This document shows positions 1-43,745 of a stretch of 64,000 nt of DNA, one piece after another; position 1 is the stretch's first letter; every line of letters begins with the position of its first letter. The position numbers and the translations under genes were made by a program. Source of the DNA: Cyanidioschyzon merolae (lineage: Eukaryota); assembly GCA_000091205.1 (NCBI GenBank), contig AP006501.2; one strand, written 5' to 3'. Below the pieces are notes generated by a model, which was given only the letters and a program-made list of their open reading frames with translations, searched no databases and had not been told where the DNA came from.

Positions 1-764
1 CCCCCCATTCCCCCCCATATCACTCCGGCCGGTTGGTCAAAGCGGAAAAGCGTCTGTTAATTCTATGTCTATTGTTTCAGATTCAATAGTGAATTTCCTT
101 CCGCGCTACAGCCGGAATTTATGCCATCTGTACTAGCGACCTCTGGCCCAGCAGAAGTACTACCGATTTTATCTTGCGATACTTTCTCTTTACATATGTA
201 TGTGTAGGAGCATCGCTTGGATTAACAGTATCATTAGGGAATTCTCTCCAGTTCTACCTTTGTTCACAAAAACTTTCTAGTTTCCGGCTATCCCAGGTTG
301 CCTGATCGATATTTGCTCTCGTTGCGGCGTCTATTTTTTCGAGCATTATTTTGAGCTGCCGTCGCTGTTCCCCACTCTCGTCTGCACTCTTCTGTTTATA
401 CATATTATCGTGCATCGGTATCGAGCCTTGAGCACTCGCCGTGGCATCTCCGTCGCTGGTGTGGATGCACTACGGAACAGATCAGCTTTCGCATACCACT
501 AAGCGCTTCGGATTTGGCTCGTTGCTCGCGACACGAAATTTAGACTTTTCATATATGCTGGGTGTCTCCAAGCTGGACAGGCAGTCTCTCTGCTGCGATG
601 GTGCGACGCGGTCTACTATTCGTCTACCGCAATCTAGGTGACGCTTAGACTCTAAAAAGCAGATCCAATTTCCAGAATCTATTGTTTTTCGATTGAGATT
701 GTAAGGTGGGTTGCATCACTCGCAACATTGTGGTCACCCGGACTAGAGGCTGGTAGAGTCTCGC

Positions 765-3410
765 TGCTCGCCGACCCTCCTCCCAAATGTGATTTTTTGA
801 CCACATGCGAATACTTCTTTCTGTTAACGTCTACAGTCAGTGGCGTTTGTATTTGCTATTCCGTTTTTCGATATTGTCTCTCTTTGGTATTTTCTATATC
901 GTCCGCCCTGGTAGCGCATCGCGAATTCTTGCCGTTACGTTACACTCTGTGCGTCTCGCCGATCATGGGGAACGTGTTAATGACCTCTTCTAGAGCGACT
1001 GCTCCATTGGGGCCACTTGCATTCTTAATCGAATGGTAGCAAAGTATAGTTTTGTATTCAATGGCGTTTCTAACTTCTAGTAAGAGTATTCAACTGATTT
1101 TCGCCATTCAACGCAGAGGTGTCCGACGAGTTTTTTGCTAAAAAATGTCAGACTTTTGTAATATGAGGTTGTGTGTTATGGATGGCCGTTGTTGCCGAAT
1201 ATCGGGAAAAAAGGTGACATAGTAGCTAATTCCAGAGGACTAGGAAAGAAGTGGAAGCGAAATGGGGAGGTGCTACGACGAACGCTGCACTAGTTTCGTG
1301 TCTATGTCGATATGGTTGTGGAATCCTGTCGTCTCCAACATATCAATGTTCCGTACGACTGAACGCTCCAAGATGCAATCAGAAACTGCGTCGACTCGCA
1401 CTCCAGGAATGATTGTTACTCTCCTTTAGAACTGACGCATTTGGTGAGCGAGCTCCATCGCGACGTAACGCACATCGCAAAATTGATCTTTCCGGAACAC
1501 TTTTTCAAAACAGAGTTTCATCTACTATCTGAATGCTTGCAATGGGGGCGCATCGCGGGGAAACTAGCGGGCGGATGCCTACGTCAAAATTTACGACAAA
1601 TACCGCATCAACGGTGCTGGACACAGGAGTGACGCAGATATTTACGAATACAGGGCAATTAGGTGCCTCATGAATGTGAGGAACCATAGGATCCTAATCC
1701 TCGATTGTATCATGATACGCGTTGTCATTGTGCTGTACCCGGGCCTGTTTTGCGAAGGGATGCTGGCAATCATCGATGGTATGAAGAACGATCGCCAGCA
1801 TGAACAGGAGATCATATTTGTCGACAAGAGAACATCACACAGGTGAAAAAATAGGTATTCTGTTATCCACGCAAGTATTCAAAAGCATCGTTCGGTCTCG
1901 GGACTTGCCAACCCAAGAGAAAAACCTGTCATGTATGGAAAATATGAAGAGAGATGTTCCTTCCTCATCTTGCCCTACTTCATGGTTTTTGGATCGAGAT
2001 CTCGAACGCAGGGCCGAAATGGAGCTGAGTATGGATACAATGGAGTATTGGAGAGTTGGCACTGAAGAACTCCTCCAGTTGCGCTTTTTTCGACCGGTTA
2101 TGCGAATTCCTGTCACATGTTTTGATTTTTGACTTTAGAGTTCTTTTCGCCTTCATGGAAGAGGTTTATCCAGTGCCCGATGGAAGCGACAGAGACGTAA
2201 CCGGCGAAGACCGGGATACCTACTAGATGCGGAAGTTCGAGTTCAAGCGTCCGAAACCGGCCAGTAAAAGGTATTCACCGGGGCCATGGATAACGATCGG
2301 GTATACATATATGTACACTTTCAGCGGTAGCAGGCATTTGTCCCATCCCGTCTTCTTTACCGCCCTCGCCGAAGCACGGAAACAGGAAGGCCGGCCATGG
2401 GATATATAATCCCCACGAGGACGACCTCGTCGTCGGCCTCAAATCCTGGAATACTGATTTTATAACCATCGTTGTTACAAGCGTTCGGAATATTTTACTG
2501 AATGTAGCTTACGTCGGAATGACAGGCGTCTTTTGAGGTTCTAGAGATCGACGTTCTACCCAGAAGCGGGAATCGTGAATACGAGGAAGAAAATTGAGAC
2601 TTGGGATGCAAAAGTGGAAGAGCATCTCGAAGTTGTGAGCGAGGTGAAGAGCCGAGGAGCGGATTTTCAGGCTTTTCAAGATTTCATGGATGTTCGTTTT
2701 GCTCATTGGGATGCGCTGTGGAAGGAGTATACAAAGCCCCGGTGGGCTTTTCTACGTGCGAATCTATACTGTCGGAAGCAGCATGCATTCGCGGACTTTT
2801 TCAATGAGTTGAGCTCCTTGAAGGAGAATGAAAGTCTGAGGCTCGTAGTAGCATATTGAGCATGGAGCTGGGCGTCGAGAAAGGGGACTACGCGTGCCCC
2901 AACGACAAGGACATTCAAAAAGTGTGCACGGCGTCTCGTTACGGTAACTGTAGATGAATTTGGAGCTTCGTATACACACCACGAGCTGTGATGTACACTC
3001 CACAGGGGCGAGATGGAAAAGTGCCAACGGAACCCTGAGGAAATAGCAAAGTACGGACCGCTGACGGAAGAGCAAATGGAAATGAGGGCAAAAGTTCGTG
3101 GACTCCTTGCATTAGTAGGTACAACGAACGATGGCGAGAAACGGATGGAGTTAATGAACCGAGACTTTAACGCCGCTATCAGTATCAGTAGATGTGCGGT
3201 GCTGGAGAAGAGACTTGCAAAGTAGACAAGAGACAACTTTGTTGGACAACCTCACAAAGCCGAACTATATGAGAGAAAGTTGGAAGCCGTAGTGGGTGGC
3301 CGGTCGAAAACGGCGGGGAGGCGTCTGCACATCAGCTGGAGACGTTATGTCTCGGGCGCCGGTGGCCACTACTGTACACGACCGGCGTTGTTCGACTTAG
3401 AAAGGCGTTT
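765..3410 (+). mobile_element. Fanzor/TnpB-like element copy 1. Heavily degraded, with an internal deletion that removes the RuvC-I segment; the left boundary is approximate.
   Basis: Frames at 1441-2130 are homologous to the N-terminal and middle region of the other copies (compare LVKEMRDDVTGIKTV / FFGKTFIRHLMLG). ORFs 2575..2859 and 3013..3225 carry HWDALWKEYTKPRWA, VDEF..SYTHHEL and MNRDFNAAISI. The conserved 3' tail ends GAAAGGCGTT at ~3401-3410. Confidence 0.6.
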
Positions 3411-3520
3411 CGCCGCGTAAGCTTCGCGAACCAGATCATCAGGAAACTTCAGGGCGCCGCGCTTAACTCGAAGTGCGCCGTACCTTCGGACTTGCTCGGA
3501 ACATCCGATGCGGATGAAGC

Positions 3521-5455
3521 CTAGCCGCAGGCACGACAACCACTTTGGGACGCGTCGCTCGAGCGTGGCAGAGTGATTGCTGGATTTTCATCAAAAAATC
3601 CGTATGGCTGTAGCATGAAGCCAGTGCTCATTGCCGGCTGCACTGGAAAGTCCTCCGGTCTCGGCAAGTGATGAATGCCGAACACGTGCCAGAGCACAAG
3701 ATCCGTATCCTCGATGCATCGATTCTGAGACACAAATCGAAGGATGCCGTCCTGTCCGTCCGAGAGATTCACGAATTCACCAGCTGGAAAGCGCTCTTCC
3801 GGGTCATAGGCTGTCACCCACAAATGACGACGGATAAAGCCGGAGCGCTGTCCAGAGGGTGAGTCCGGGTCAAGGAACGACGTGAGCGTATGTGCCGGTT
3901 CTAGTTTGTAGGCGACTGGCATATTAACACGATTCTTTTTGTTCGGATTCAACACTTTCCAATACCGGTGGCTGGCAGGATTCGCACAGCGACATGCCTC
4001 CAGCTCAGTTCGTAGCAGCGTCTCGGTGACGTAGTACGCATTCCCGTAGGGATTCGCAGCTGCATCCTCCGCTCGCGTATTACACTCTACAACAGAGTTG
4101 CGATCCCCGTCTACGCTGAGGTCCATCCGCACGCAGAAGTAATGCTGGTGAATGTGTCCTTCGACGCCAGGCATAACCTCAGTACCGTAGCGGCTCGGTC
4201 TGCCCGGCTCGCAGGCCACAGTGCTGATGACGCCAGTAGCCCGCATTTCGTACTCAATGGCGCCGTCCTGACGAAAATACCAGTATGAGGCGTACTCGTA
4301 ATTGCAAACCGTTGAAATGCTGGAGATGACGAGGCGTCTACCGCGCCGCGTTTCTGCACGGTCGGTGCGGAAATCCCAGTGCTTCCAGAGCAGGCCGGCA
4401 TCCTCTTCGTGAATGCAGATGGCGTTTGGTATGGTCAGCGGCTCGCCGTGCATCGTGGCAATGTGGGCGTCCATATAAACCACGCAACCGGTACAATCAC
4501 AATTCATCCGTAGCGAGTTCGCTAGCTTACCGATCCCGTACTCCCCAATATCAAAAACATTCTTTCGAAAGTGGGGCTCCACTGGCGTGCCGTACGGCAC
4601 GACCATCTCCACCAGGGAGAGCCTGCGAGCCACTGGGCGTCCAGCAAACCGAATATCATGCAGCGTGATACCCTCGCGTGCATTGAAACCAATCACCAGA
4701 GACCATTGATCCCAGGCAATTGTATGATCGTTCAGGACAAAGCTCGGTCCCTGGTCCTGCACAATGCGCAGCGGCTTCAAGGGCTTGCGAATATCAGTTC
4801 TCAGATTCGGTTCGTAATTGCATTCCGTTCGCGGTACGGGGATATTCTGCAGATCATAAACTTTGAGCACTTTATTGCCCAGGACATCCACCATCGCGTA
4901 AAGTCCTTCAACTGGGTGTGCATAGAGGTTGTCATCGGCATGATTCCGTACCCAGCAGAAAGCCAACGCAAGGTGGTGATCCTTCTCCTCAACGGAACCG
5001 AACGCCCCTGCCGACCACGGATCAATACAAACTAGACTCATGTCTTCGATACCGTGTTTCCTGCACGCAGCCTGGAACTCCGGACACGCCCGTACAGCTT
5101 CTTCTATAGCAGTGAACTGTTCAAGCTGGAGCATAGGGCGAGCGTTCGGGTAGTACTTTTTGGCGATTACGATCTCTTGCGAGAGCGAAACGATCAGCTT
5201 CCACACGCCAATAGAGCTTCTCCGGAAGATGAAGACCTCGGCCTCACGTTCGGTGGGCTTGCCGGCCACCCAGAGCTCTTTGGGTGGCTCGTGGAGCTGA
5301 ATTCGCTCAAAGAGCGGTTCCTCTGGGAAAGGTGCGCCCTGGCGGCCGATGCTGGCAGCACGTAAAATCTCCGCTGGCGTGAGCGGCGTCAACGGGTGCA
5401 TAATAGAGGTGTCCTGCCTCTTGTGCAGTACTGCAAAGACAACACGAGCAACCAA
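3521..5455 (-). CDS. Copper-containing amine oxidase (TPQ quinoprotein)
   Basis: 644-aa ORF. Carries the TPQ consensus N-Y-E-Y (CNYEYASYWYF) and copper-ligand histidines (GHIHQHYF). An alternative start is MHPLTPL at 5401. Confidence 0.8.
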   Translation of the reverse strand: MVARVVFAVLHKRQDTSIMHPLTPLTPAEILRAASIGRQGAPFPEEPLFERIQLHEPPKELWVAGKPTEREAEVFIFRRSSIGVWKLIVSLSQEIVIAKKYYPNARPMLQLEQFTAIEEAVRACPEFQAACRKHGIEDMSLVCIDPWSAGAFGSVEEKDHHLALAFCWVRNHADDNLYAHPVEGLYAMVDVLGNKVLKVYDLQNIPVPRTECNYEPNLRTDIRKPLKPLRIVQDQGPSFVLNDHTIAWDQWSLVIGFNAREGITLHDIRFAGRPVARRLSLVEMVVPYGTPVEPHFRKNVFDIGEYGIGKLANSLRMNCDCTGCVVYMDAHIATMHGEPLTIPNAICIHEEDAGLLWKHWDFRTDRAETRRGRRLVISSISTVCNYEYASYWYFRQDGAIEYEMRATGVISTVACEPGRPSRYGTEVMPGVEGHIHQHYFCVRMDLSVDGDRNSVVECNTRAEDAAANPYGNAYYVTETLLRTELEACRCANPASHRYWKVLNPNKKNRVNMPVAYKLEPAHTLTSFLDPDSPSGQRSGFIRRHLWVTAYDPEERFPAGEFVNLSDGQDGILRFVSQNRCIEDTDLVLWHVFGIHHLPRPEDFPVQPAMSTGFMLQPYGFFDENPAITLPRSSDASQSGCRACG

Positions 5456-6070
5456 GATTACCTCGGTTGCGCTTCAAGGCGCCTCAGCGTCTATCGTACC
5501 AAGGACTGCAACGGAAACCGGGAGCAATGAAGGAATAAATTCCGTTGAGCGATCAACTTGCGACATAGATGTACAGAACGTACAGGAGCAATCTGGGTGT
5601 CGGACACGTCTCCTTCATCGAGCGGGGAGGCGTCTCGCGCAGTGCACGCATCGCTCTCGGTGAGCGTATACCTGGGAAATCAGGCAGTCAACTGACACGA
5701 TGCGTATGCCGTTGAAGCGAAACGCGATCCTGATCAGTAGGGTGTTGTTCAACCGGAAAAAGTTGGATTTCAATTCAGGTCGTAGCCAAGAACATTTTTT
5801 CACTTCGTATTTGTTTCAACCTTCAAACAAGTCTAGACAAGTGGTTTTTCGCAGTATATGACAGAAGCGTTCAAAGAGCGTTGTTTTTTTAAAAAAACCT
5901 AAAAAAGGAAAGCTTTGAGAAAGCAAGTTGACGATCCTGGAGGCCCAGGGTCGCCGGCCGCTAGAGACAAACAAAAAGCAGTGCCGAGTCCAGAAGAAAA
6001 GGAAGAGAAGAAGAACCGAAAGCGGGATGCCCTACGTCGGAGGCGGCAAGAAACATGACTGTAGAACGAG

Positions 6071-8310
6071 ATGGAGGTGAAAACCTTTCTTCTTGGACAT
6101 ATCAAGGATCCCTACAAGGAAAAGTTGCGAGAAACTATCGAAAAACGTGTCGACTCGTACTCCTTGAGGATTATGAAGGTTTCTTCATAACTATTCCATT
6201 TGGTGAAGGAGATGTGTCGCGACGTAACCTAGATGGAAATGGTGGCATTCCGGACAAGTTTTTCGATAAGACCTTTATTCGTCACTTGATGCTTGGCACA
6301 GAGAAAGCGCGGAAGGAAAATGAGCGGGTGTATGCGCTCCACGAAAAACATCCCTTTTACAGCTTCAAGGGTACTCGGTACAAGGGTGACCGGGATGTTT
6401 ACGACTATGGGGCGATGAAGTACCTCACGAACCTGAAGAACCATTTGACAGAGAACCTCGAACGTTCCATGATACGCGCCGTGATTGCACTCTACCCGGG
6501 CCTGTCTCGCCAAGGAAAATGGGCGATTATCATAGGCATCACCAAAGATCGCAAGCATGAAGATGAGATCGAACTCGTCGACAAGAAGACATCACGTAAG
6601 AGAAAGAATGAAGCTTCTGTCATCCGTGCGGCCATACAAGTGTACCGTGCAGTCTTGGGGTTGGCAAATCCGACAGACAAGATATCAGAGTTGAAAAAAG
6701 ATAAGGAATGATACTATCGCCTCATCCTGCGCTATTTTGTGTTTCTGGACCGAGAACTCAAACGCAAGGCAGAGGCGAGGCTGAGTGGGGAAAAAATGAA
6801 GAGTGGGAGAGACGGAAGCCTTTCCTAATGGGTAAGCGCTTCGACGTGGTTCCAATGTGCAAGATCAAGTCATATTTGTGACTATTGACTCCGGCGTCCT
6901 TCACGCCATCATGAAGGAGATCAGTCCGGATTTCAGTGTCAGCGAGGAGGAGTTCTCCGGTGAAAACCGGGAGACGTACTGGAAGAATATCTTCGGTTTC
7001 AAACGCTTGCGAGTGAGCAAGGAAACGTTGTTCACCGGAATGATTGATACCGATGGAGTAGCCTAGTGTGTACACTATCGGCGGTTCAAGAAAGATCGTC
7101 CTGGTCCGCCGTCGGCTGTGCCCGTGACGAAGGATAAAGAAAAGAATGAGGCGGATCCTGCGACGCTGGTGGTGGAGGAGAACGAACTTATTTTTGACGC
7201 GGCGAAGGATGAAGAAAAGAATGAGGCGGATCCTGCGACGCAGGCGGTGGAGGAGAACGAACTTATTTTTGACGCGGCGAAGGATGAAGAAAAGAATGAG
7301 GCGGATCCTGTGACGCAGGAGGTGGAGGAGAACGACCTTATTTTTGACGCGGCGAAGGATGAAGAAAAGAATGAGGCGGATCCTGTGACGCAGGAGGTGG
7401 AGGAGAACGACCTTGTCGTTGACGTGGCGAAGAATGAAGGAAATACGGAGGCGGATCTTACAATGCAGAAAGTGCAGGAGAACGACTTTGTCGTTGGTGT
7501 GGACCCTGGAAATACGAATATCATAACCATCGCAGCACCCAAGCGCGCGGAAGATGGTACTGACGGCAACTTACGTCAGAAAGACATGCGTCTTTCGAGG
7601 TTCTCAAGAGCTAGATATTACCGAGAATCCGGTGTAATGAATGCAAGGAAGAAAACCGAGAAATGGAATTCAGGAATGAAAGATCTCCCGGAACATTTGA
7701 GCGGGGTGACGAGCCGAGGAGCCGACTTTGAAGCTTTTCGTAAATTCGTGGAAGTTCGCATGGCGCATTGGGATGTGCTGTGGGAGGAGTATACCATGCC
7801 CCGGTGGGCTCGTTTGCGTGTGAAACTGTATTGTGGGAAGCAGCGGGCGTTCGCCAACTTTTTCAATCAGTTGAGCGCCCTCAAGGAGAATGAAAATCAG
7901 AAGCTTGTAGTAGCGTATGGGGCAGGCCACTGGAAGACCCAAAAAGGAACTACGCCAGCTCCAACGACAAGAACGTACAAGGAGTGCGCACAACGTTTCG
8001 TTGCGATACCTGTAGACGAGTTCCGAACATCCTATACACACCATGAACTGGGATGTACACTTCAGCGAGTCGAGATGAAAAAGTGCCGGCGGATCCCTGA
8101 GGAAATCGCCAAGTACGGACCGCTAACAGAAGAGCAAATGGAAAGGAGCGCGAAAGTTCGCGGACTCCTTGCGTAAGTAAGTACAACCAGTGGTGGGAAG
8201 GAACGTATGGAATTCGTGAACCGAGACTTTAATGCCGCTATCAATATCCGAAAATGTGCGGTGCTGGAGGAAAGACCTCCAGAGAAGACAAAAGGCAACT
8301 TTGTTGGATA
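6071..8310 (+). pseudogene. Fanzor1-like (TnpB-family, RuvC) nuclease pseudogene with frameshifts and a nonsense codon
   Basis: Starts MEVKTFLLGHIKDP (compare MVVKTCLLAHIKDP in copy 4 and MAVKACLLQHTKDP in copy 3). Frame changes near 6200, 6711 and 7066, and a stop at 8177. Ends after CAVLEERPPEKTKGNFVG*. Confidence 0.65.
7130..7504 (+). repeat. In-frame tandem repeat, 5 units of 75 bp (25 aa, acidic: [25 protein letters not shown]), inside copy 2 immediately upstream of RuvC-I
   Basis: The units are visible directly in the translation of 7118..8176. Copies 3 and 4 have a single unit at the same position. Confidence 0.85.
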
Positions 8311-8579
8311 GCCTCTAAAAGTCGAACTATATGAGAAAAAGTTGGAAGCAGTAGTGGGTGGCCGGTCGAAAAAGGCGGGGAGGCGCCTGCGCGTCAGTTG
8401 GTGACGATTTGTCTCAGGCGCGGTTTTCCCGCCACTACTGTACATGGCCGACGTTGTTCGACTTTCGAAAGGCGTTGATCGCGCGCGAATTTCGCGCTCC
8501 ACCTCTGTTCTTTGGCGCTCTCGCAGACCTGCGTGTGAAGTAGTTTCTGGATTCTCGACGCAAGTTTCGATCTCATAGT

Positions 8580-10091
8580 ATGAACCACCGTACGCCTCTT
8601 TCGGCTCGAGGTGAAGCACGGGCTGCCTATGCAGCGTTTGTACCCGCTACTGGAACAGTGTGGTCAGCGTCGAGACACCGGTCACTTGGCCGGAGCTATT
8701 TCACGGCGTCGCGTCCCGGAACGCTCCAACCACACTGCAGCAGTCGCGGAAAGAGACACAACGTAGACTGGCTGCGCAGTGCCATGAGGGTGCAAGCTAA
8801 TGGAGCGTCGTACCCGGGACGAGGCAACGACCGCCAACTGTCTTCGTTGCCGTTATCCAGCGACAGTTCGGCCCCGCCGTGTCTGATTAAAGTTATCGGC
8901 GTCGGTGGTGGTGGCGGCAACGCAGTGAACCGTATGGCAGATACAGGTATTTCGGGTGTGGAGTTCTGGGCGATCAACACTGACGTGCAGGCGCTGAAGC
9001 GCTCGGCGGCACACCATACGCTGAGCATCGGGAATAAGCTGACCCGTGGTCTCGGAGCTGGCGGCAATCCCGAAGTGGGTCGCAAAGCCGCCGAGGAATC
9101 GTGCGACCAAATTGCAGAAGCCGTCCGTGGCGCCGACCTGGTGTTTGTGACTGCCGGAATGGGCGGCGGCACTGGTTCCGGAGCCGCTCCAGTAGTTGCA
9201 GAGGCTGCCCGCGAGCAAGGCTGCCTAACCGTGGGCGTTGTCACCAAGCCATTCGCGTTTGAAGGCCGGAAACGCATGAATCAGGCGCTGGAGGCTATCG
9301 AGGCCTTGCGCGAGAGCGTGGACACGCTGATTGTCGTGAGCAACGACAAGCTGCTTCAGATAGTCCCTGAGAACACACCATTGCAGGACGCATTTCGAGT
9401 TGCAGATGACATCCTGCGGCAGGGTGTTGTGGGCATCAGCGATATTATCATCCGCCCTGGTCTCATTAACGTAGACTTTGCCGACGTCCGAAGTGTCATG
9501 GCACATGCGGGATCGGCCTTAATGGGCATCGGCACCGGCAGTGGCAAGTCCCGGGCCCATGACGCCGCCGTGGCAGCGATTTCCTCACCGCTGCTGGATT
9601 TCCCTATCGAGCGTGCCAAAGGTATTGTTTTCAACGTCACCGGTGGAGAAGACATGACCCTGCACGAAATCAACCAGGCCGCTGAGGTAATCTACGAAGC
9701 AGTCGACCCCAACGCGAATATCATCTTCGGTGCCCTTATTGATCAGCAAATGGAAAGCGAGATATCCATAACGGTGGTTGCCACAGGCTTCCCTCAGCCT
9801 AACGAGAGCGCCAACAGTGGCGGCTCCTCATCTACATTGAATGCTACGGCAAATGAGTTTTACCAGGCTGGTGCGGCACCGTCGTCACCAAAGCTTGGGG
9901 GAACGAGCCGCCGCGGCGGCATTGCTGCGGATACCGCCACTCACTTTGGGCGTGATGCGGGCGCTCGGCGCCCAGCTCCGGGCCCTCAAGTGCCGCCTCC
10001 CAATCGTCAGGTCACACCTCCGCCACCACAGCCGGGACCGTCGCGCACCATAGGGAACATTCCGGATTTTCTGCGTCGATTCCAAAAGTAA
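8580..10091 (+). CDS. ftsZ: FtsZ, organelle-type (probably mitochondrial) division GTPase, with an N-terminal presequence-like extension
   Basis: Tubulin/FtsZ GTP-binding signature GGGTGSG ([14 protein letters not shown]), [15 protein letters not shown], and the C-terminal conserved peptide IPDFLRRF. About 110 aa of Ser/Arg-rich N-terminal extension precede the GTPase core. Confidence 0.85.
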
Positions 10092-11334
10092 GTTTGGCTC
10101 CGTGCTCGCCCAGTGCCGCGAAGCGCATGCCCAAGTGCTCTCCGCCAGCTGGACGGATCTGAAACGAATTGCATTCGCTCGGTGCGCTCGTGCCCCGCCG
10201 CTCCTCCGTCCGAAGTGCTGCTGTATATGTTTCCATGAGCGACTTCAAAAGCGCGCACCGGTTACCCATAGCTCACTTCAAACGAGACGACAAGACGAGG
10301 CGCGAGCGCTGGGTCTGAGGTAGAGGTTTCTAGCATTCAGGAATGTCCTAAAATCGTGTTTTGAGGGTCAGTCTCCACCAGATATCCATCCTTTTACAAA
10401 ACAGACAACATCTGCTGCGCGCTTTGCCTGGCACGTGAATCTCGAGTCCGCGCTATCGGACGCGTCTCTGTCGACACGTGGATACTGCGTGCGCGAGAAG
10501 AGGCGCAGGCCTTGCACCGCCGATGCGTTTCCGTCGCGCAACGCGCCTAGCGCCCATCGCAGCATCCACAGCGTGGAACGATCACACCGGCAAATACATC
10601 GCATTCACGCAATGTGACGTCACAAAACGCATACGCACGGATACGTACACACACGCACACGCGCGAAAACAGAACAACATGTGCATGCGTGCAAGCGTCG
10701 ATCTGAGGGTGTGCCCGACTGCTGCCGCAGAGGCGCTCCAGCGCGTGTCCATGCGAGCATCGTCGGGCATCGTGAATCAGAACTGCGCCCTCATGGAAAC
10801 GGGCTACGTAGAGTTTTTCCATGTAGGCTCGGATCTCCGTGCGTCTGTTACAGAGTCGTCGAGCGCATCTGTCAAAACAGGTGACGTTTGAGGGCAAACG
10901 CACCGCACCGGGTTCACGGGAGATCGCTCGGGGCATGCGGATCGTTCAAGCGAGCAGCCGCTGCCAGCCTTGAGCGCCATCATAACGCGATCACACCAGT
11001 AGGTGCGTCGCGTTCCCGCGGAACCTGTGCGCTGCAGGTCAGCACACAGACACACGGTCCATACGCGGTGCACTGATGATGCTCGGTGCTACGCAGCGGG
11101 GATACCTCGCGTCAAGAGAACCGGCTGGCGAGCAACATCCTGGCGTCTGGCGTGAAACGTGCCTTGTCCAGCGCACAGAAAGTATCCCGGTGGAATGGAG
11201 AGATGCTCATCAGTCAATCTTCGAATGCGGTGGCAGTCACGGTACCGAACGCACTTTGTGCGCCAGCGTGCGCCCCGGGGATGAAGCGGCACCCGCCTAG
11301 TGCGACGCTTCGGCACCGGGTCACGTAGTCGCAT

Positions 11335-12312
11335 TCACTGCTGCTGCAACTGTTGCACAACGACCGAGTTCAAAAGATTCGCCTCTGCGAGTGTCTGTGA
11401 TTCTTCCTCTAGCGTTCGTCGTGGTAAAACCGTTTGGAATACGAAAGGTGTACCGGCATAGTCCGCGCGATGAGAACAAACGAGACTTCTGAGGTCGCGC
11501 ACGCGGTGCGTGGTATTCAAACGCATGACCAGACGGGATCCATCAGCTAGACGAACCTGGACTTGCGTCGTGGGTGCGTCAGGGTCCAGGTCATCGGGCT
11601 CGACCACATCGCTGGTGCACGTGTTCGCCGTTCGCTGCGACGTCGCAGCGGGTTCCTTGGGAGGCTCCTCAGCTGCCTCACCAAGGCGATATCCTCCACC
11701 CTCAAACGGCCGCCGACGGCTCGCAGCTGCCTTATCCGAGGGTGCAGTGTAGTCTTCGAAAGAGCGGTCGACAAGATTGACACTAAGCTCGCTTAGGTCG
11801 GGCTCTTCGAGTTCGCGTGGTACAACCCCTGCGTGGATATCAGCAAGAAACGCTGCTTGCGCGGGGTCGTCCAACCTTCGAAGCTCTCCGTCATCCACAA
11901 TAAAACCGTTTCGATAGAACGTAATTGTCTTTGTAACGATGCGCGTCCGAGCGGGTGTCGGAGCGCCTGCCGGCTCGTACGCATCGCTCCCCGGTGACTC
12001 CGTGTCGCCGAGTCTGTATCCCGTGCCGTGGAACGCTCCACTTGGACGAGCTGCACTCCCAGCGTCCGCAACCTGCGGTTGCCCGAGCTGCTGACGGGCC
12101 CGATCCAGAATAGCGGAAACTAGACGGTGTCGTGAACTACCAGACTGACGCGCAGCCGAGTTACGCCGCGGGTCTTGTGCTGGGTTACCTCGGATCGTCT
12201 GACCACTGGATTCGCCTCCGGCATAGTACTCGTTGTCGGAGCCGTCCTCTTCAACGTCTTCGTCTTTCTGTAGGTCAGCTAAGGTTTTAAACGGCATGTT
12301 CTCAAATAACAC
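11335..12312 (-). CDS. p47/Shp1-like cofactor of Cdc48/p97 (SEP + UBX domains)
   Basis: SEP-like segment TITFYRNGFIVDDGELRRLDDPAQAAFLADIHAGVVPRELE. UBX-like C-terminus QVQVRLADGSRLVMRLNTTHRVRDLRSLV...PFVFQTVLPRR. Confidence 0.7.
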   Translation of the reverse strand: MLFENMPFKTLADLQKDEDVEEDGSDNEYYAGGESSGQTIRGNPAQDPRRNSAARQSGSSRHRLVSAILDRARQQLGQPQVADAGSAARPSGAFHGTGYRLGDTESPGSDAYEPAGAPTPARTRIVTKTITFYRNGFIVDDGELRRLDDPAQAAFLADIHAGVVPRELEEPDLSELSVNLVDRSFEDYTAPSDKAAASRRRPFEGGGYRLGEAAEEPPKEPAATSQRTANTCTSDVVEPDDLDPDAPTTQVQVRLADGSRLVMRLNTTHRVRDLRSLVCSHRADYAGTPFVFQTVLPRRTLEEESQTLAEANLLNSVVVQQLQQQ

Positions 12313-15300
12313 TGCTAACTGTCTCGACGCTCCTGGCAGAACTGCTCGCCAACTGCGCCTGCGTTACCAGACAGTAAAAAGCGTATCTTCGACAAATGTC
12401 CGGCTAGCGCTGCTGTGTGATGCTATTCAGCGCTGCTGGCGACGCGGTCCAGCCGTTCAGCGAAGCGGCGCGCTCATTCGCAGCAAGTTCAGTCATGCTG
12501 CAGCCGGTATGCGAAGCGAGTGCTCCCAGACAGACTCGACCTGAGCAGGGTCACTGGATCGACCAAACCGCTGCTTCCGTAGGGAGGGCTGGTCCATGAT
12601 CAGGGGAGCATCGCAACCTCCACAAAGGCGCGGTAGTCGCTTTCATAACTGCCGACATGCATCAAGCAGCCGAGAAATTCTGGTTGAACGTATCCGTCTT
12701 ACACGGTAGAGGTGAACGGTATGCCGCCATTCGCGAACCCATGGAGTAGTGTCGATTACCTCTACTTCAGCCAGCGCTGTATGGGCTCCGGGACGCAGCT
12801 TCAGTTGGTTCTGATCGCTCGTCTAAATGTTAGCCCTAGTCCGTGGAAAAGCTCAGAAACCTCTACAGTACCTGAGAACATGCTCGGATTCCGAAATAGA
12901 CTATTCTCTAGGGGTTTCCGGTAATCAAGTCTATCAGCGCACCAAACGCGTGTTTGGGATAGAGGCTGTCGCTGCCGTGGAAACGTGCGCGCATACGCAA
13001 CAAAGTGTTTTGTACGCGCTGCACGGAGTGTCTAGTCCGCGTGACCGCCAGTGCCCTACTCAACCACCTGGATACAGGGGTTGTGGTTCATTCACGGACT
13101 GGGATGCACCGGTGGCAGCGACAGCGTCCCAGCTGCTGCACGGTGCGATGCATCACACCTCGCCGCCTAAGTAGATATATTGAGCCTTACAGGATGCACA
13201 CACTAGAGAAAACTACCTCATCTAATCTTCAATGGCCCCCATGGGTTTGTGCTGCGTCCTAGTTCCGGGTATCCGAAACTCCAGTCAGCATGGCAAGTGT
13301 GCTGCGCGTGGTGCGTTCTCGCACTCCACCGACACCCCAGCGCAAGTCGATGCCTTCAACCGAAGACAGGGACGGGTCTCGTCGCTGTTTTCATTTGGGA
13401 CCTGCTGTGCCATGCCCTTATCGGGTCAAAAAGAATCTTCAGCCCTAGGTGGCATCACCAAATTTGCTGATATTTCGAAGAAGCCCTGCAGGTATCTCTG
13501 AAATTGTCCACAGCGCGCCAAGTGTCGCAGAAGCACCCGAGGCGCAAGACGCTGGTCGTTGGCCTGCGCGCGGGTCTAGCGGCTTCAGAACGGGGATCAT
13601 CATCTTTGGCAAGCATTTTCGAAAACTGTCCCCGGATGCGATGCTGTATGCGAATAGAGCGCTGAACCCATCGCGCTGGTCTGTTGAACGAGCCCGCTGA
13701 CCTGCAACCGATCGTTCACGTGGCCTGTGCATTGGAGAGCAGGTCAACGACAAGTTCCATTAACGAGGACGACTCCCACGTGGGAAGCGCATTAACGACT
13801 GAAGACGACTGCTCCCAGTGAGATGCAACTTTGGGCGGCTCCGCTGGCTGCCAGGTCTCGGTCCGCATCCAAGGAGTACAAGTTTACCACGTATCCGGCC
13901 GGAAAAGAGTACATCATAGACACGAAGGAATGCGGCTGGGATAAAAGGTTCTGCTGCAGCATGACGCATGCCCTACCCTATGCCCGAGTTCTTGTTCGGA
14001 GCTCCGTATTCGGATACGCGGTGTGCATCCGCCGACGCGCTCAGGAGCGCACAGTTCGCCCCAGACCCCATCCTCTAAACAAGCCTCCGTACGGGAAGCA
14101 GCTCTATCTTGTTGGAACGGGCAGTACGCAGTGGCATCTCGTAGGCCGCTGATCTCGCTTTCCAGGTCACTGGTGGCACTCGCTCATTCGTAGAATCATG
14201 ATACAAACCTTCGTTCCTCCAGCATCACCATAACCATTATCATTACCATCCGCGCTGGACCTGGGAGGCGCTTCGCAGCTCGGAAAATGCCTCCCGAGCC
14301 CGCGCACTGCATCCAGTAGGGGTGGCGTGCTCGCGAATCACGAGGTCGCTGCGATGCGCGGTGCAATGATCATGCTATTGAAAAAGAACAGAGACTAGCC
14401 ATTAAATAGCACCGAGATGACGGTTTCTTTTCCCCTCTAGGGTAAACGTTAAAAAGGGCAAGAGGCTTCTATATTGTCGAAAGCTTACCTTATGCGTGGA
14501 ATTTTCCCAAAGCTTGACGAGTCTGCTAGGCAAGTGCATTTGCTCCAACCAGTGGCAGGTGCTTTCCTAACACCTGAGCAGCTCACCCGCAATACAGTTT
14601 ATTCTGGGACTAGACGCAGTAAAGCTGCATATGGGCGTCGCCCGGATCGCAGTAGACCCCTAGCATATCGCTTCGCGCTGCCGCAGGCAACAGGCTTGTC
14701 TGCGCAGCTTGCTGGCTCCCAGAATGATTACGCACTCCGACCCCGTATCAGATGCACCACACCTCGAGCCGTCCCCATCAGCAGTATGGCGAAGCGGTTC
14801 CGTCTCCGTGCCGCAACCGCACCAGCGGTATAAGCGCTACGACGAGTGCTCTCGAAAGGCACTCGGCGCAAGATAGAACGTATCCAACGACCAGTACACC
14901 CGAGAGGAACTGTGATTGGTGGAACTCGCATGCAGGCTGCATCATGATGGACACTTTCCTGAAAGCCATTATCCATTCCGAATTGTGGGATCCTTGCTCA
15001 TTGTAAACAATCTGTCGAACAAAAACACATGCAATGAACGTACGCGAGAGCGACGCTGGCGAGGAGCGCAACGCTGCGCTGCGTTTCCTCCAGCTCGAGT
15101 CTAGCCTGCGTCCAGTATTCGTGCTTGTCGAGCGGATGCGAGTCGCGACGCATATAGCGGCTTTCCAAGCGAGTCCTCTGCGAAGCTTGCGTTCGCTTTC
15201 CGTGAAGGGAGGCTCTACGACCGGGTTGAGTTGTTGCTCTATTGCTTCAGCGCGGCAAGCTGAACACTTATCGTGGCGAGCGAACGTCTCCACAGGTTGC

Positions 15301-35845: not shown

Positions 35846-38553
35846 AACGCCGTTCTAAAGAAAAGGCTGCTGTCACCAGTGGTACAGCAGTGGCGCGCCA
35901 CGCGCCCCCCAGACAAAACGTCTCGAGCAGATGCGCAGATGCCCTTCAGATTTCTTGAACCGGCCACCCAATACTGCTTCCAACTTCTTTTCATATAGTT
36001 CAACTTTGAGAGGTTGTCCAAGAAAATTTTCTCTTGACAGCTGTGGAGGTCGTTTCTCCAGCAGCGCACATTTCCTTATATTGATTGCGGCGTTAAAGTC
36101 ACGATTCACAAACTCCATATGTTTCTTGCCATTGGTAGTTGGACTCACTAGTGCAAGCAATCCACGAACTTTCGCCCTCCTTTTCATTTGCTCTTCCGTC
36201 AGCGGTCCGTACTTTTTTACATCCTCAGGGCTTCGCTGATATTTTTCCATCTCGACCGTCTGAAGTGTGCACCCCAGTTCATGGTGTGTATAGGACGTTC
36301 GGAACTCATCTGCAGGTATCGTAGCGAAGCTCCGTGCGCACTTCTTGTACGTTCTTGTTGTTGGAGCTGGCGTAGTTCCTTTTTTGGGTCCTCCATCGCC
36401 CTGCTCCGTATGCTACTACGAGCCTTTGACTTTCATCCTCCTTCAAGGCGCTCAACTGACTGAAAAAGTTGGCGACTGCAAGCCGCTTCCCACAATACAG
36501 GTTCATAAGCAGACGGGCCCATCGAGGCTTTGTATACTCCTCCCACAGCGCATCCCAATGAGCAACGCGAACTTCCATAAACTCCCGAAAAGCGTTAGAG
36601 TCCGCTCCTCGGGTCGTCACCTCGCTCAAAGCCTCCAGGTGCTCTTTCATTCCTGAATTCCATGTAATGATTTTCTTCCTTGCATTCATTACGCCGGATC
36701 CTCGGTAGTATCTCGCTCTCGAGAACCTCAACAGACGCATGTCTTTCTGACGTGAGTTGCCGTCAGTACCATCTTCCGCGCGCTTGGGAGCAGCGATGGT
36801 TACGATATTCGTAACCCCAGGGTCCGCGCCAACGACAAAGTCGTTATCCTGCACTTTCTGTGTGGCACAATCTGCCTCCTTCTCATCTTCATGCTTCGTC
36901 ACGGACACTATCGAAGACGGAACTGGACGATCCGCCTTCAAGCGCCGATAGTGAACACACATGGCTACTCCATCGGTTTCGATCACCCCTGTGAATACCT
37001 TTTGTTTGCTCACTTTCAGACTTGTGAAATCGAAGATATTCTTCCAGTACGTGTCCCGGTTTTCACCGGTACTCTCCTTCCTGCTGACATTAAACTCGGG
37101 GCTGAACTCCTTCATGATGCCGTAAAGGATTCTGGAATCGATAGTCACAAAATGTGACTCGATGTTGGACAACGGAACGACGTTGAAGCGCTTACCCAGA
37201 AGCGCAGCCTTTCGTCTCCCCCACTCTTCATTTTTTCCTCACTCAGCTTCATCTCTGCCTTGCGTTCGAGCTCACGGTCCAGAAACACAAAGTAACGCAG
37301 GACGTGGCGGTAGTATCTTTCGTTATCTTTTTTCAACTCTGATATGTTTGCTGCTCGGTTCGCCAACCCCAGTACCGCACGATGCTCTTGTATAGCCGCT
37401 CGGATGACGGAATCCTCATTCATGCTCCTGAGTGATTTCTTCTCGTCGATGAATTCAATCTCATCTTCATGCTTGCGATCGTTCGTGTTGCCATTGATAA
37501 TCGCCCATATCCCCTGGCGAATGAGACCGGGTAGAGTGCAAAGATGGAGCGTATCATGAAGTTCTTGAGGTTCATTGTTAAATGGTTCTTTAGACTGGTG
37601 AGGTAGTTCATCGCTCCGTAGGTGTAAATATTCGAATCCCCCCCTGTATCGAGTACCGTCGAAGCGGAACTCGGCGTAAATTTTGTGGAGGGCATGAACT
37701 CGCTCATTTCACCTAGACGTTTCACCGGTGCCAAGCATCCGGTGATGAAAAACGGTTTTGTTGAGAAAATCTTCCAGAATATGGACTGTTTTGATGTCCG
37801 TAACGTCATGATACCATTTTCTTAGGAAATCCACCATTCCTTGAGAAGCGTCACGAACACCGCTGGAGTTCGGCTCGACACGGTTCCAGATTGCCTCTCG
37901 AACGTTTTCCCTGTACGGATCCTTGGTATGTTGAAGAAGACAGGCTTTCACCGCCATCTCGTCGTACCGTCATCTTTTGCGTAGCCTTTGACGTAGGGCC
38001 TCCCGCTTTTACTTCTTCTTCTTATCCTGTTCCTTTGCACTTGGCACTGTTCTTCATTTTTTCGGGCTGCCGGCGACATTGGCGCCCAGGATCCTCCACT
38101 TCCCCTCCCGTAACTTTCCTTTTTCAATATAAAAAACCGAAACAACTTTGGATGGTACAGCTATTACGCATAAAAAAGCACTTGAATACATTAGTGTGAA
38201 GGTTGAAACACGATTGAGGACAAACAATGGGCTTTTCTACGACTTGAAATCGTTAAAATTTGTACGATAGAGCTACATGCTTCATTTTTCCGATGGAAAA
38301 ACACTTACATTGACAATGGATCCCAGATTGTGCTATAAATGGGTATCGGATTTGGCGAAAGCATCCATCATGCTGCATTCTAACTCCAGATTCCATTACG
38401 TATACTTCCTTTCAGATGTACTACTCGTCTCGTGCTTCCTGTCATTCGCCGGGTGCATGCGTTGATGCACCCGCCTTAGCGTCTAATCCGCTGATGCCGA
38501 TGCATAACAGAGACAGGACAGCGTTGCCGTACTACTGAGGGCGTCGGATCGAG
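35846..38553 (-). mobile_element. Fanzor/TnpB-like element copy 3 (pseudogene with frameshifts), head-to-head with copy 4
   Basis: ORFs 37709..37957, 37420..37809, 37145..37423, 36306..37172 ([16 protein letters not shown]; HWDALWEEYTKPRWARL) and 35873..36250 (MEKYQRSPEDVKKYGPLTEEQ...FVNRDFNAAINIRKCALLE). The left end (reverse complement) at 38553 is homologous to the solo left-end repeats (cctcgatccgacgccctcagtagtacggcaacgc). The right-end motif (reverse complement) ttagaacggcgttt lies at ~35846-35860. Confidence 0.7.
35873..37957 (-). pseudogene. Fanzor1-like RuvC nuclease pseudogene (copy 3)
   Basis: Colinear with copies 2 and 4. At least 3 frameshifts. Confidence 0.6.
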
Positions 38554-38682
38554 GAATGCTCCACCTGACACAGAGTCGGAGTATAGGATCATTCTGGGAG
38601 CCAGCAAGCTCCGCAGACAGACACACTGCCTGCGATAGCGTGAAGCTATATACCAGGACTCCACCGCGACCAGATCGACGCC

Positions 38683-41476
38683 CAGATGCAGTTTAACTGC
38701 CGCTAGTACCAGAATAAACAGTGCTGCAGACGAATTGCTCAGATTTCTATGCAGCACCCGCCACTGGGTGGCGAGCACGAAGCACGTGCCTGGGGTACTC
38801 GTCTGGCTCGCGGGTTTTTCCGTCGAGAAATTCAACTTTCGACAAAACGGGAACCGTGTTTCCTTTTTATCGTTTATCGTGCAGGGAAGATAAATTGGTA
38901 TATCGTTGCTAGTTAATGGTTAGTCTCTGTTCTTTGCTCTGTATGCTGCGGTCGGTTAGCGCGCCGGGGAGATCAGGTCGTACGAGACAAGACGCACGTG
39001 TCGCCGTTGAAAGGAAACGCGAAATTGTGAAAATCCGTTTTCTTATTGTTCTACCGTACAAGTTGTATTTGCGTTAAAGTCGTAACAAAGTAAAGTTGTT
39101 TCATGCAATTGTGTTTCAAACCTCAAGTAAGTGTATACAAATGATGTTTGGCAATTCAGATCAGAAGCGTCGAAAGAACCTTCTTCTTCTTCAAAAATAA
39201 AAAAGGTTATGGAAAAGAAACTGGAGGATCCTGGACATCTGGTGTCGTCGACTGCCGGAGACTGACGAAAAACATGGCGGAGCTAAAAGGAACATGAGAA
39301 GACGATGGAGCAAAAGAGGAAGGCCCGAGGTCAGAAGCTGAACGAACCACGACAGTACGACAAGATGGTGGTGAAAACCTGTCTTCTCGCACATATCAAG
39401 GATCCGTCCCGGCGAAGGCTGCGAGAGGCCATCAGAAACCGTATCGAGTCATACTCCATGAGTGTTATGATGGCTTCTGCAGGTATAATGCATTTGGTGA
39501 AGGAGATGCGCGACGACGTAACGGGCATCAAAACAGTCGAGGTTCTGGAAGAATTTTTCGGCAAAACCTTTATTCGTCACCTGATGCTTGGTACAGGGGA
39601 AACGTCGAGGAGAAATGAGCGGGTGCATGCCCTCTGCCAAAAATACTCCTTCTACAGCTCCAACGGTACTCGAGACAGGGGTGACTCGCATATTTACACC
39701 GTCGGGTTATGAAGCACCTCACGAACCTGAAGAACTATTTGACCATGAGCCTGGAACGTTTCATGATACGCGCCGTCTGTACGCGCTACCCGGGCCCCTC
39801 TCGCGAAGGGATATGGACCATCATCGACGGCATCACAAACGATAGTAAGAATGAGCAGGAGATCGAATTTGTTCACGGGAAGACATCACGCAGGAGAGCA
39901 AATGAGGATTCTGGAATCCGTGCAGCTATTAAAGAGCATCGTGTGGTCTTGGGGCTGGCGAGTCCAGCAGAAAAGATATCCGAGTTGAAAAAAGATTCGG
40001 AAAGATACGATCGCCTCATCTTGCGCTATACCATATTCCTGAACCGACAACTGAAATGCAAGACCGATATGGAGCAGGGTGTTGAAGCAAATGCAGTGTC
40101 GGAGAAACGGAAAGCTGCGCTTCTGGAGAAGCGCGTCAACGTCGTTCCGTTGTGCAACATCAAGTCACATTTTGTGAGTATCGACTCCGAAATCCCTTAC
40201 GGCATCATTACGGAGATCTGTCCAGTGTTCGATGTAAGCAACAAGCAGTTCACCGATGAAAACCAGGAGACGTACTGGAAGAAGAATATCTTCGATTCCA
40301 AACGTCTCAGAACGAGCAAGAAAAAGGAATTCACTGGGATGATCGAAAGTGATGCGATAGCCATGCGTGTACATTATCGGCGCTTGAAGGCGGATCGTCC
40401 AGTTCTGTCTTCGTTGCCGTCGCTGGCAAAGCGTGAAGAAAACAAAGAGGCTAGCCCAACGACGCAGGAGGTGCATGAGAACCACTTTGTCGTTGGCGCG
40501 GGCCCTGGGAACACGAATATCAGGACCATCACAACACGCAATTGCGGGGATGATGGCATCGACGACAACCTACGTCAAAAAACACATGCGTGTTTTAAAG
40601 CTTTCAAGAACGAGATATTACCGAGAATTCGGTGTGATGAATGCAAAGAAGAAAAGTGGGGCGTGGAACGCAGGATTGAAAGAGCACCTGGAAGCGATCA
40701 GCCAGGTGACGGGCCGGGGAGCGGACTTTCACGCTTTTCGGGAGTTTATGGAAGTTCGTGTTGCTCATTGCGAGGCGCTGTAGGAGGAGTATACAAAGCC
40801 CCGGTGGGCTCGGTTGCGTATGAATCTACACGGTGGGAGCCAGCGTGCGTTCGCGAGTTTTTTCAATGAATTGAACGTCTTGAAGGAGAGCGACAGTCAG
40901 AGGCTCGTACTAGCGTATGGAGCAGGGCGATGGAAGACCCGAAAAGGGTGTACACGAGCTCCAACTACAAGAACGCACAAGGAGTGTGCAAGGCGTTTCG
41001 TTACGATACCTGTAGATGAGTTACGAACGTCGTATACACACCATGAACTGGGTTGTACGCATCATAGAGTGGAGATGGAAAAGTACCAGTGAAGCCCTGA
41101 GGATGTAAAAAAGTACGGAGCGTTGACGGAGGAACAAATGGAAAGCAGGGCGAAAGCTCGTGGACTACTCGCATTACTGTGTACAAACAAAGATGGCAAG
41201 AAACGTATGGAGTTTGTGAATCGTGACTTTAACGCCGCTATCAATATAAGGAGATGTGCGGTGGTGGAAAGAAGACCTCCAGAGTGGACACGATAGAACT
41301 TTGTTGCGCAATCATTCAAACTGGAACTGTATGAGAAAAAGTTGGAGGCAGTAGTAGGTGGCCTGTCCAAAAAGGCTGGGAGGCGTCTGCACGTCAGCCG
41401 AAGACGATTTATCTAGCGCGGGTTTCTCGCCACTACTGTACACGGCCGCCGGCGACGTTCGTCTTTTAGGGCGTTC
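38683..41476 (+). mobile_element. Fanzor/TnpB-like element copy 4 (pseudogene; the RuvC-I Asp is replaced by Gly)
   Basis: Left end ccagatcgacgccc at ~38683. ORFs 39305..39712, 39709..40869 ([16 protein letters not shown]) and 40814..41092 (VDELRTSYTHHELGC), then FVNRDFNAAINIRRCAVVE. Right end cgtcttttagggcgtt at ~41465-41476. Confidence 0.7.
39365..41290 (+). pseudogene. Fanzor1-like RuvC nuclease pseudogene (copy 4)
   Basis: Starts MVVKTCLLAHIKDP. Frameshifts near 39712 and 40780. D>G at RuvC-I. Confidence 0.6.
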
Positions 41477-41763
41477 CTTGTGTCGGCGATACCACGGACC
41501 AGCAGCAGGCGACCGCGCCCATCGCCCGAAAGAAGCAACCGGTTTCGCGAGCTGGACGCAGTACGGCGCTCTGCCCTGTGCGCCTTTTGTGGCTTTCAGG
41601 TACGCGGTCTACCGCTCCGGACACTGCTCCAACAGTCTGGCCGGTCCTTGATTACGACAAGTAGCGCTGAAAGCAAGCCTTTCGTGCACGGAAACTGAAC
41701 GCGAGTCGGAGCACTGTTCGTCACACAAGTGCTGGGTTATCCGTTCTCGTCCCTATCATAGAC

Positions 41764-43427: not shown

Positions 43428-43745
43428 GCACGCCTCAAGCCGACGCCCTCTCGGGTATAGAAAAGCTGTTCTAGCTCTATGAACTATCTGCTCTAGCATT
43501 TAAGGTCCAAAGGCGGATACGGAACGGCAGGCACTAGGCACACCCGATGGGACGTATGAAACGGCCGGAATATCCGAGAAGAGGTATCGGTAATGTAACT
43601 TGGAGGTTCGGGGGTTTGATGGACACCTTACCGCCCACTGAAAAAAACCACAAAAAAAGTAAGAAACAAATGCGCTTAATCGGAGAACGCTGGCCGAAGT
43701 AAACGTGTTGTCAGTGAAAAAAATCCGAACGTGCTGCTGTGGTGG
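43428..43745 (+). repeat. Solo left-end fragment (~320 bp) of the Fanzor-like element family (repeat A)
   Basis: ~80% identical to 50483-50812. Also homologous to the left-end regions of copy 3 (reverse complement at 38553 and below), copy 4 (38683+) and copy 2 (5459+). Begins CCTCAAGCCGACGCCCT. Confidence 0.75.

Follow-up and report, generated by a model that had tools for sequence, protein, structure and literature searches.

We analysed a family of repeats in a 64,000-nucleotide stretch of the Cyanidioschyzon merolae genome (contig AP006501.2; hereafter the window, with positions counted from its first nucleotide) and, in particular, the member designated copy 2, which ends at position 8476. 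Copy 2 is almost certainly a decayed CMe-1A element: non-autonomous, about 2.5-3.2 kb long, and encoding a Fanzor1 protein whose mechanism we propose by analogy. Sequence and modelling evidence supports the placement of this protein, CMe-1, in Fanzor1, the eukaryotic descendant of the bacterial TnpB RuvC endonuclease. The family has been known since 2013, and our additions to it are modest and partly tentative: the coordinates of the window copies, an apparent nested insertion after TTTC without a target site duplication (TSD), an element end extended by TT, a terminal hairpin, alternative 5' modules and a variable 75-bp repeat.

CMe-1A is the one Fanzor1 family listed for C. merolae (Bao and Jurka 2013, Mob DNA 4:12; Repbase; PMC3627910). 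Its consensus is about 3 kb (3169 bp), and the roughly 150 genome copies are each about 80% identical to it; there are no terminal inverted repeats (TIRs), TSDs were left undetermined and the transposon class unclassified (PMC3627910). The first 635 bp at the 5' end are 95% identical to a separate element, TE-N2_CMe, present in about 70 copies. The encoded protein has 734 aa and was placed within the Fanzor1 clade in the original phylogeny, and intact copies survive in C. merolae (PMC3627910). Red-algal Fanzors were also taken in by a 2023 census (PMC10530073).

We compared the window with the consensus DNA and the CMe-1 protein from the additional files of PMC3627910. All window copies were 75-87% identical to the CMe-1A consensus in DNA, with segments in the expected order (blastn). 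The initial annotation of the window, made from the sequence letters, had proposed a repeat family with seven copies or fragments. This was borne out by a repeat search of the 64-kb window, which found dispersed direct and inverted repeats of 73-84% identity at the places listed, and by MAFFT alignment, in which the four long copies were pairwise 62-70% identical. A majority-rule consensus of these four lost nearly all of the stops; the protein that it encodes, in two frames, is about 680 aa long. The protein rebuilt from them was identical to published CMe-1 at 612 of 682 positions (90%), without gaps. The window itself is from strain 10D: its FtsZ ORF matches FtsZ2-1 of that strain, a member of the same 90%-identity cluster, at all 503 residues. 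We therefore take the window repeats to be the published CMe-1A family in its published genome, with no difference in kind. Besides the four long copies, the family content of the window comprises three 3'-end fragments and several solo pieces of the 5' module. As befits a eukaryotic transposable element, the copies are scattered, truncated and apparently nested, and their 3' ends are defined. The gene is single and intron-less: neither the consensus nor the window copies contain a second open reading frame (ORF) or an adjacent TnpA (Y1 or serine recombinase), only the single 734-aa ORF, longer than the approximately 650 aa first estimated. Beyond the window, we found 71 CMe-1-related loci in metagenomes.

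Is CMe-1 a Fanzor1 protein by its motifs? A database search returned 61 relatives, the distant ones at about 30% identity. We scored motif conservation on an alignment (A1) of 16 relatives reaching down to 29% identity, numbering residues on P0001, an uninterrupted 752-aa ORF from a JGI metagenome of hot-spring type (L001, 6001-8259). The P0001 type of ORF was seen in 22 near-identical sequences from several samples. Across all 16 relatives, RuvC-I D484 (within DPG), glutamate E656 in DEFR(T/S)S, and RuvC-III D725 and N727 were invariant, and R724, A728, A729 and N731 were at least 90% conserved. The canonical RuvC-II strand reads LVVAYGAGRW in the CMe-1 family and has no glutamate, so that the presumed catalytic glutamate is the one at the "alternative" position. 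T358-D359-G360 of the WED domain was invariant as well. DPG, the alternative glutamate (Ealt) and the WED TDG are published Fanzor/Fanzor1 signatures (PMC10711439). Conservation of the D/E/D residues and of the WED/REC architecture at about 30% identity argues for selection on catalysis.

The profile and the fold point the same way. Searched against PDB sequences with hmmsearch, the A1 profile matched PpFz1 of Parasitella parasitica (9cf0) at E=2.2e-15 and GtFz1 of Guillardia theta (9cer) at E=0.086, and no family other than Fanzor1 at E<=1. The AlphaFold2 model of P0001 has a mean predicted local distance difference test score of 73.8 and a predicted template-modelling (TM) score of 0.66; its low-confidence parts include the basic N-terminus, residues 191-207 and a tandem-repeat insert at 374-471. 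About 370 structured residues precede RuvC-I, and two long helices lie between RuvC-I and RuvC-II. The seven best PDB matches of the model in Foldseek were all SpuFz, PpFz or GtFz (E from 2e-16 to 7.5e-13; target-normalised TM scores of 0.50-0.68), with the next best, Cas12o (E=9e-3) and Cas12f (E of about 1e-2), far behind. The initial annotation had read three RuvC motifs in the repeated ORF and called it Fanzor1-type. All three motifs are present in copy 2, and the profile search and structure comparison that it proposed as checks both favour the call; loss of conservation at D/E/D, which it named as evidence to the contrary, was not seen among the 16 relatives.

Copy 2 covers consensus 672-3169 at 83-87% identity (blastn against CMe-1A). 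Its family sequence begins at about 5550-5597, with a 5' module common to the metagenome loci L033, L065, L061 and L035, and it ends in ...GAAAGGCGTT at 8476. The coding region is broken: tblastn high-scoring segment pairs fall in frames 2, 1, 3 and 2, and the longest open stretch is 369 aa. The canonical RuvC-II strand of copy 2, KLVVAYGAGHW at 7901-7933, contains no glutamate. Copies 2 and 3 keep DPGNTN, which copies 1 and 4 have lost; NRDFNAAINIR is present in copies 1-4. No intact coding copy was found among the window copies, all of which carry frameshifts and stops. They are pseudogenes, or fossils, and several have lost a catalytic residue. The 75-bp tandem repeat next to RuvC-I is present as one unit in the consensus element, and the extra segment pairs of copy 2 map to consensus 2117-2196 (blastn). 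Its unit number varies among paralogues (one in the consensus, 4.8 in copy 2, a larger number in P0010) and also among orthologous loci, in which L024 has two units and L023 one unit more than copy 2. The 25-aa repeat is acidic, and the region that contains it (P0001 residues 374-471) is modelled as disordered.

The 3' end of the family is precise. Over the final 330 nt, which include the coding tail, conservation is about 85% among 49 distinct copies, and the right end of the element is ...GAAAGGCGTT (...GGCGTT); the published consensus stops two bases earlier, at GGCG. We considered whether the TT after GGCG might be target sequence and set this aside, as the apparent nested insertion described below puts TT inside the element, where it takes part in the pairing of the terminal stem. 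A terminal hairpin comprising the final bases can be folded from about 25 of 36 copies, in two variants: AACGTTTTTC/TTTT/GAAAGGCGTT and GCGTCGTTCGA/CTT/TCGAACGGCGT. The consensus variants gave z = -2.8 and -4.7 against shuffles; window copies gave z = -1.3 to +1.3. The terminal stem is kept in both variants, and we do not claim formal covariation; a compensatory reading of the two variants was dropped, because their stems use different registers in the alignment columns. The first 8 nt after ...GGCGTT are weakly biased to KGTTGKTG (36 distinct copies from the window and L001-L071), and in several copies trinucleotide repeats follow at once, as with (GCT)n/(GGT)n in L049 and (GGC GGT)n in L068. 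This microsatellite-like bias of the 3' flank fits no model that we considered.

The 5' ends are less uniform. Within the window only copy 4 is a full-length CMe-1A; it is apparently nested head-to-head in the 5' part of copy 3 (38281-38300 and 41470-41560). It runs from CGATG... to ...GGCGTT, and joining its flanks restores the consensus ...CGCCGTTGAAGG|GAAACG... (TTGAAGG|GAAACG). In the orientation of copy 4 the target reads ...TTTC^CC..., with no duplication and a boundary ambiguous by one base. Support for the nested insertion is limited, as no more than about 14 nt match on the far side, and the absence of a TSD is a suggestive observation from one apparent nested insertion. A dozen independent full-length or TE-N2 copies have 5' flanks that end in TTT(T)C. 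Most of the 71 related metagenome loci lack the TE-N2 module and start near consensus 645-690; their 5' sequence consists of at least three other shared modules or of unique sequence, and a constant 3' end goes with 5' truncation in many of them. The 5' modules can be exchanged: at least four are found joined to the Fanzor core (consensus about 645-3169), namely TE-N2_CMe, "B", an A-rich "C" and "D" (loci L003, L007, L013, L016, L019, L022, L030, L035, L005, L069, L027 and L046). The B module is at least 600 bp long and contains the palindrome GGACACGTGTCC; window positions 5550-5680, approximately, carry the B type. A small hairpin, GCGCTC-GGT-GAGCGC, marks the start of the shared core. A 10-nt inverted match between consensus 5-14 and 3098-3107 (GACAAAACGT / ACGTTTTGTC) was reached in 1 of 2000 shuffles; in copy 4 it lies at about 38295-38304 and 41400-41412, the 3' site being just before the stop codon and upstream of the hairpins. 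It was not co-conserved in the independent full-length copy L038, and we keep it only as a lead.

Could these ends reflect a particular mode of movement? CMe-1 may be a non-autonomous rolling-circle element of the HUH type, similar to Helitron2 or IS91, a tentative idea that would complement the Fanzor1 reading and assign a class to an element that had none in 2013, and that we consider possible, if on the doubtful side. Replication would start at a variable or bypassed 5' end and stop at the 3' hairpin, leaving a constant 3' end with varied 5' modules and truncations. The lack of TIRs, the apparent nested insertion of copy 4 without a target duplication, the conserved 3' terminal hairpin and the small hairpin at the start of the shared core are all consistent with such a route. 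The TTT(T)C flanks resemble the TTTT^T/C target of the Fanzor1-bearing Helitron2 of Chlamydomonas (PMC3627910), the 10-nt inverted match resembles asymmetric terminal inverted repeats, and the combination of one 3' core with at least four 5' modules and many 5' truncations is as reported for CRe-1/2/3. However, the inverted match lies 62-71 nt from the end, compared with the 20-30 nt typical of Helitron2, and fails in L038, and the ends do not fit the Helitron 5'-TC / CTRR-3' pattern. CMe-1 has no known Rep/helicase partner, and a RepHel or HUH transposase was not sought in C. merolae. The nested insertion, moreover, contributes only some 14 nt on one side, and rolling-circle movement leaves the weak 3'-flank bias unexplained. 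A retrotransposon reading, suggested by 5' truncation and the microsatellite-like 3' flanks, was set aside: there is no poly(A) and no reverse transcriptase, and the 3' hairpin is precise.

Fanzor function was established in 2023. The Fanzor1 proteins tested are RNA-guided DNA endonucleases that depend on a target-adjacent motif (TAM), the guide RNA derives from the 3' part of the ORF or untranslated region (UTR) and reads through the right end of the element, and many of them have N-terminal nuclear localisation signals (PMC10432273, PMC10530073, PMC10711439). By analogy, an intact CMe-1 would be carried into the nucleus by its K/R-rich N-terminus (GKKRKT..KKQKREARRQR) and would bind a guide RNA (omega-RNA, or fRNA) from the conserved 3' end of its own transcript, extending into the flanking DNA. 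Its split RuvC site (D of DPG, E of DEFRTS, D of NRDFNAA) would then cut guide-paired DNA beside a short motif, for which the TTT(T)C of the 5' flank is a candidate TAM. Such cutting presumably helps the element to persist or spread. In Fanzor1 guide-RNA scaffolds, the final bases pair into a double-stranded stem (PMC10711439), and the conserved ...GGCGTT terminal hairpin is in keeping with this; the 3' untranslated end of copy 2 is a candidate omega-RNA scaffold and/or transposition signal. RNA guidance, the TAM and activity would concern intact copies elsewhere: with their frameshifts, stops and lost catalytic residues, the window copies can have no Fanzor activity.

The proposed movement and the proposed mechanism can be joined. 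CMe-1 would then be a hairpin-ended, TSD-less element moving by a single-strand or rolling-circle route, with TTT(T)C serving as both insertion target and TAM and the GGCGTT hairpin as both termination signal and last stem of the guide RNA. We think it unlikely that this speculative composite holds. If true, a single-strand route with a shared TTT(T)C target and TAM would be a eukaryotic analogue of the TnpA-TnpB logic of IS200/IS605, and the interchangeable 5' modules would arise by one-ended transposition or bypass of the terminator.

Several results weigh against reading CMe-1 as an RNA-guided Fanzor1 nuclease. Pfam returned for the rebuilt protein only PF07282 (Cas12f1-like_TNB), at NRDFNAAINI, with E=0.7 and 10.5 bits against a cut-off of 26.3; seven relatives reached at best E=0.006, also below threshold, and a single-sequence phmmer search of the PDB gave noise only. 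These direct searches were essentially negative, and hence membership rests on the profile, the fold and the motifs. (PF26935, listed for many homologues, is a weak DUF8286 match that was missing from our Pfam scans, and we did not use it.) The reading frame of P0001 is closed by a TAA some 45 codons ahead of the stop in the consensus. The degenerate finger of the initial annotation is there in CMe-1 as HH-x3-C-x11-C (THHELGCTLQRVEMEKC) between RuvC-II and RuvC-III, which is not an intact C4; relatives P0051-P0061 lack the finger residues, keeping one Cys in LLWC, and the C4 set is not conserved in the subclade. A C4 zinc finger is part of the original TnpB/Fanzor motif, and CMe-1 was still assigned to Fanzor1 (PMC3627910). 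On the RNA side, RNAalifold found three pairs and no covarying consensus structure in 36 aligned 3' ends. Finally, CrFNuc-1 of Chlamydomonas, the one Fanzor1 from a Helitron2 element to have been tested, bound its RNA but did not cleave in vitro (PMC10530073). Hence, nuclease activity should not be assumed even for intact CMe-1.

Perhaps the 3' hairpins are a DNA-level signal for transposition or transcription termination, there is no guide RNA, and the protein is inactive or has another role, such as binding without cutting? The lack of covariation and the behaviour of CrFNuc-1 would agree with this, and the terminal hairpin contains T-runs that would resemble terminators. Against it stand the strict conservation of D/E/D and WED/REC among distant relatives, the roughly 160 nt of coding 3' tail plus UTR that are about 85% conserved at the DNA level, and the fact that every tested Fanzor1 binds RNA from its own 3' end (PMC10432273, PMC10530073, PMC10711439). 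We judge this account distinctly improbable. In another account, the ORF is a host multigene family or another RuvC/TnpB-like lineage (Fanzor2, IS607-type or a viral insertion). The sub-threshold Pfam match and the lack of a zinc finger and of an associated transposase would allow that, but the best sequence and fold matches are specifically Fanzor1 (SpuFz, PpFz1 and GtFz1), CMe-1 has the TDG motif and a long WED/REC region at its N-terminus, the copies resemble those of a transposable element in being dispersed, decayed, truncated and nested, and the original phylogeny placed CMe-1 in the Fanzor1 clade (PMC3627910), so that we give it hardly any credence.

Table 1. Features of the window: copy 2 and its parts, further family members, and the genes beside copy 2
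Feature	Position	Strand	Remarks
Copy 2	~5550-8476	+	CMe-1 Fanzor1 element; B-type 5' module instead of TE-N2_CMe
Copy 2, degenerate Fanzor1 coding region	5915-8413	+	3 frameshifts and 9 in-frame stops relative to the 734-aa CMe-1
Copy 2, WED-domain TDG motif	7037-7078	+	
Copy 2, in-frame tandem repeat of 75 bp (25 aa)	7128-7486	+	4.8 units; adjoins RuvC-I on its N-terminal side; TRF 91% matches
Copy 2, RuvC-I motif	7484-7534	+	DPG signature
Copy 2, RuvC-II motif VAIPVDEFRTSYTHHELGC	8000-8056	+	alternative glutamate
Copy 2, RuvC-III motif EFVNRDFNAAINIRKC	8210-8257	+	sole stretch touching Pfam Cas12f1-like_TNB
Copy 2, 3' untranslated end	8414-8476	+	small hairpins and terminal stem ending ...GGCGTT, partly decayed
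Copy 1	1036-3409	+	most decayed; consensus 777-3145 at 75% (blastn); 2 frameshifts, 11 in-frame stops; RuvC-I D -> L
Copy 3	35846-38290	-	consensus 735-3169 at 84% (blastn); 2 frameshifts, 4 in-frame stops; remnant from 41476 to ~41560 (-)
Copy 4	38291-41475	+	consensus 1-3161 at 83% (blastn); TE-N2_CMe-like 5' module and Fanzor core; 2 frameshifts, 5 in-frame stops; RuvC-I D -> G
Fragment	47958-48425	-	internally deleted, strongly decayed; consensus 2849-3084 and 844-959
Fragment	61671-62195	-	5'-truncated 3' end; consensus 2645-3169, 86% identity; E -> A (DAFRTS)
Fragment	62185-62615	+	5'-truncated 3' end; consensus 2739-3169, 85% identity; RuvC-III D -> E
Solo 5' module (TE-N2_CMe equivalent)	14376-15020	-	consensus 5-644 at 80% (blastn)
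Smaller solo TE-N2_CMe-like pieces	43407-43607, 50488-50667	-	
Copper amine oxidase-like ORF	3521-5455	-	644 aa; family sequence of copy 2 begins ~100 bp from its start
FtsZ2-1 (plastid-type FtsZ)	8580-10091	+	503/503 identical to BAM82658.1 / XP_005538694.1, C. merolae 10D

The places first listed for the copies needed revision at several points (Table 1), although the total of seven copies or fragments stood, as did the end of copy 2. The family sequence of copy 2 begins later than the 5459 first given. Copy 1, listed as 765-3410, is solid over the shorter span in the table, and it may start near 262, given a 5'-module fragment at 425-511. Copy 3 had been extended to 38553; the start of copy 4, listed as 38683-41476, lies about 390 bp earlier. 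The fragment listed as 47895-48220, whose limits also changed, keeps a RuvC-III remnant, EIKNRDLNATINIRRC. All three intervals of solo 5'-module sequence had been missed. The two fragments near the end of the window abut head-to-head with an overlap of about 10 bp, forming a palindrome of about 940 bp with arms that are some 83% complementary; it may have arisen by an inverted duplication or from two truncated insertions that occurred independently. Seven copies in 64 kb had been put forward as a notable load. With about 150 copies genome-wide, in a family published in 2013, the local density is a cluster and not a discovery, and all of the window copies are pseudogenes.

Copy 2 occupies a gap of about 3.1 kb between two divergently oriented, intron-less host genes. 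Two metagenome contigs, L024 and L023, align in synteny with window positions 2482-11808 (95-99% identity); both contain copy 2, and L024 additionally contains the 3' part of copy 1. We conclude that these insertions predate the divergence of the strains.

C. merolae is a minimal, transformable and nearly intron-free model alga. The 2013 paper and the intact ORFs in metagenomes indicate that intact copies survive, and the host is genetically tractable; hence the natural role of a Fanzor1 could be tested there. With its old and still partly coding family, the alga is a possible system for asking how Fanzor1 serves its element in a native eukaryotic host. As a discovery, the window carries limited weight, since the family, host, copy number and relationship to TnpB were published in 2013. 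The definitions of the ends (...GGCGTT, the hairpin, the TTT(T)C flank, the absence of a TSD at one apparent nested insertion and the modular 5' ends) are starting points for functional work and for classification.

How does CMe-1 compare with known systems? With SpuFz1 of Spizellomyces punctatus (PDB 8GKH, 9CEU-9CEZ), PpFz1 and GtFz1 it shares the fold, the split RuvC D/E/D site and the order WED-REC-RuvC, at a sequence identity of just 12-16%, and each is a single ORF in a short non-autonomous element. CMe-1 differs from these three in its disordered tandem-repeat insertion before RuvC-I and its longer C-terminal tail. The SpuFz1 element is flanked by TIRs in a TA/CATA context; TIRs are absent from CMe-1, and no TSD is detectable in it.

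In element structure there are parallels with CRe-1/2/3 of Chlamydomonas reinhardtii, the Helitron2 elements that carry CrFNuc. These too are algal Fanzor1 genes on non-autonomous elements, with a 3' end that is constant and 5' regions that vary or are often truncated; terminal hairpins and, apparently, a T-rich target are shared as well. For the Helitron2-borne Fanzor1 of Chlamydomonas, a T-rich target, hairpin ends, asymmetric inverted repeats and one-ended transposition have been described (PMC3627910; PMC10530073), and a conserved 3'-UTR RNA has been reported for CrFNuc (PMC10530073). The CRe genes, however, have 5-10 exons while CMe-1 has no introns, their ends match verified Helitrons with a RepHel partner of which none is known for CMe-1, and many CRe copies have TSDs of 7-19 bp, unlike CMe-1.

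Compared with bacterial TnpB (IS200/IS605 and IS607), which is about 400 aa long, CMe-1 is about 330 aa longer, uses the alternative in place of the canonical RuvC-II glutamate, has no intact zinc finger and no TnpA, and does not reach the Pfam models of the TnpB type. The two nevertheless share RD.NAA.NI in RuvC-III and the TS motif after RuvC-II, apparently TSD-less insertion beside a short motif and, presumably, the logic of a guide RNA drawn from the 3' end of the element.

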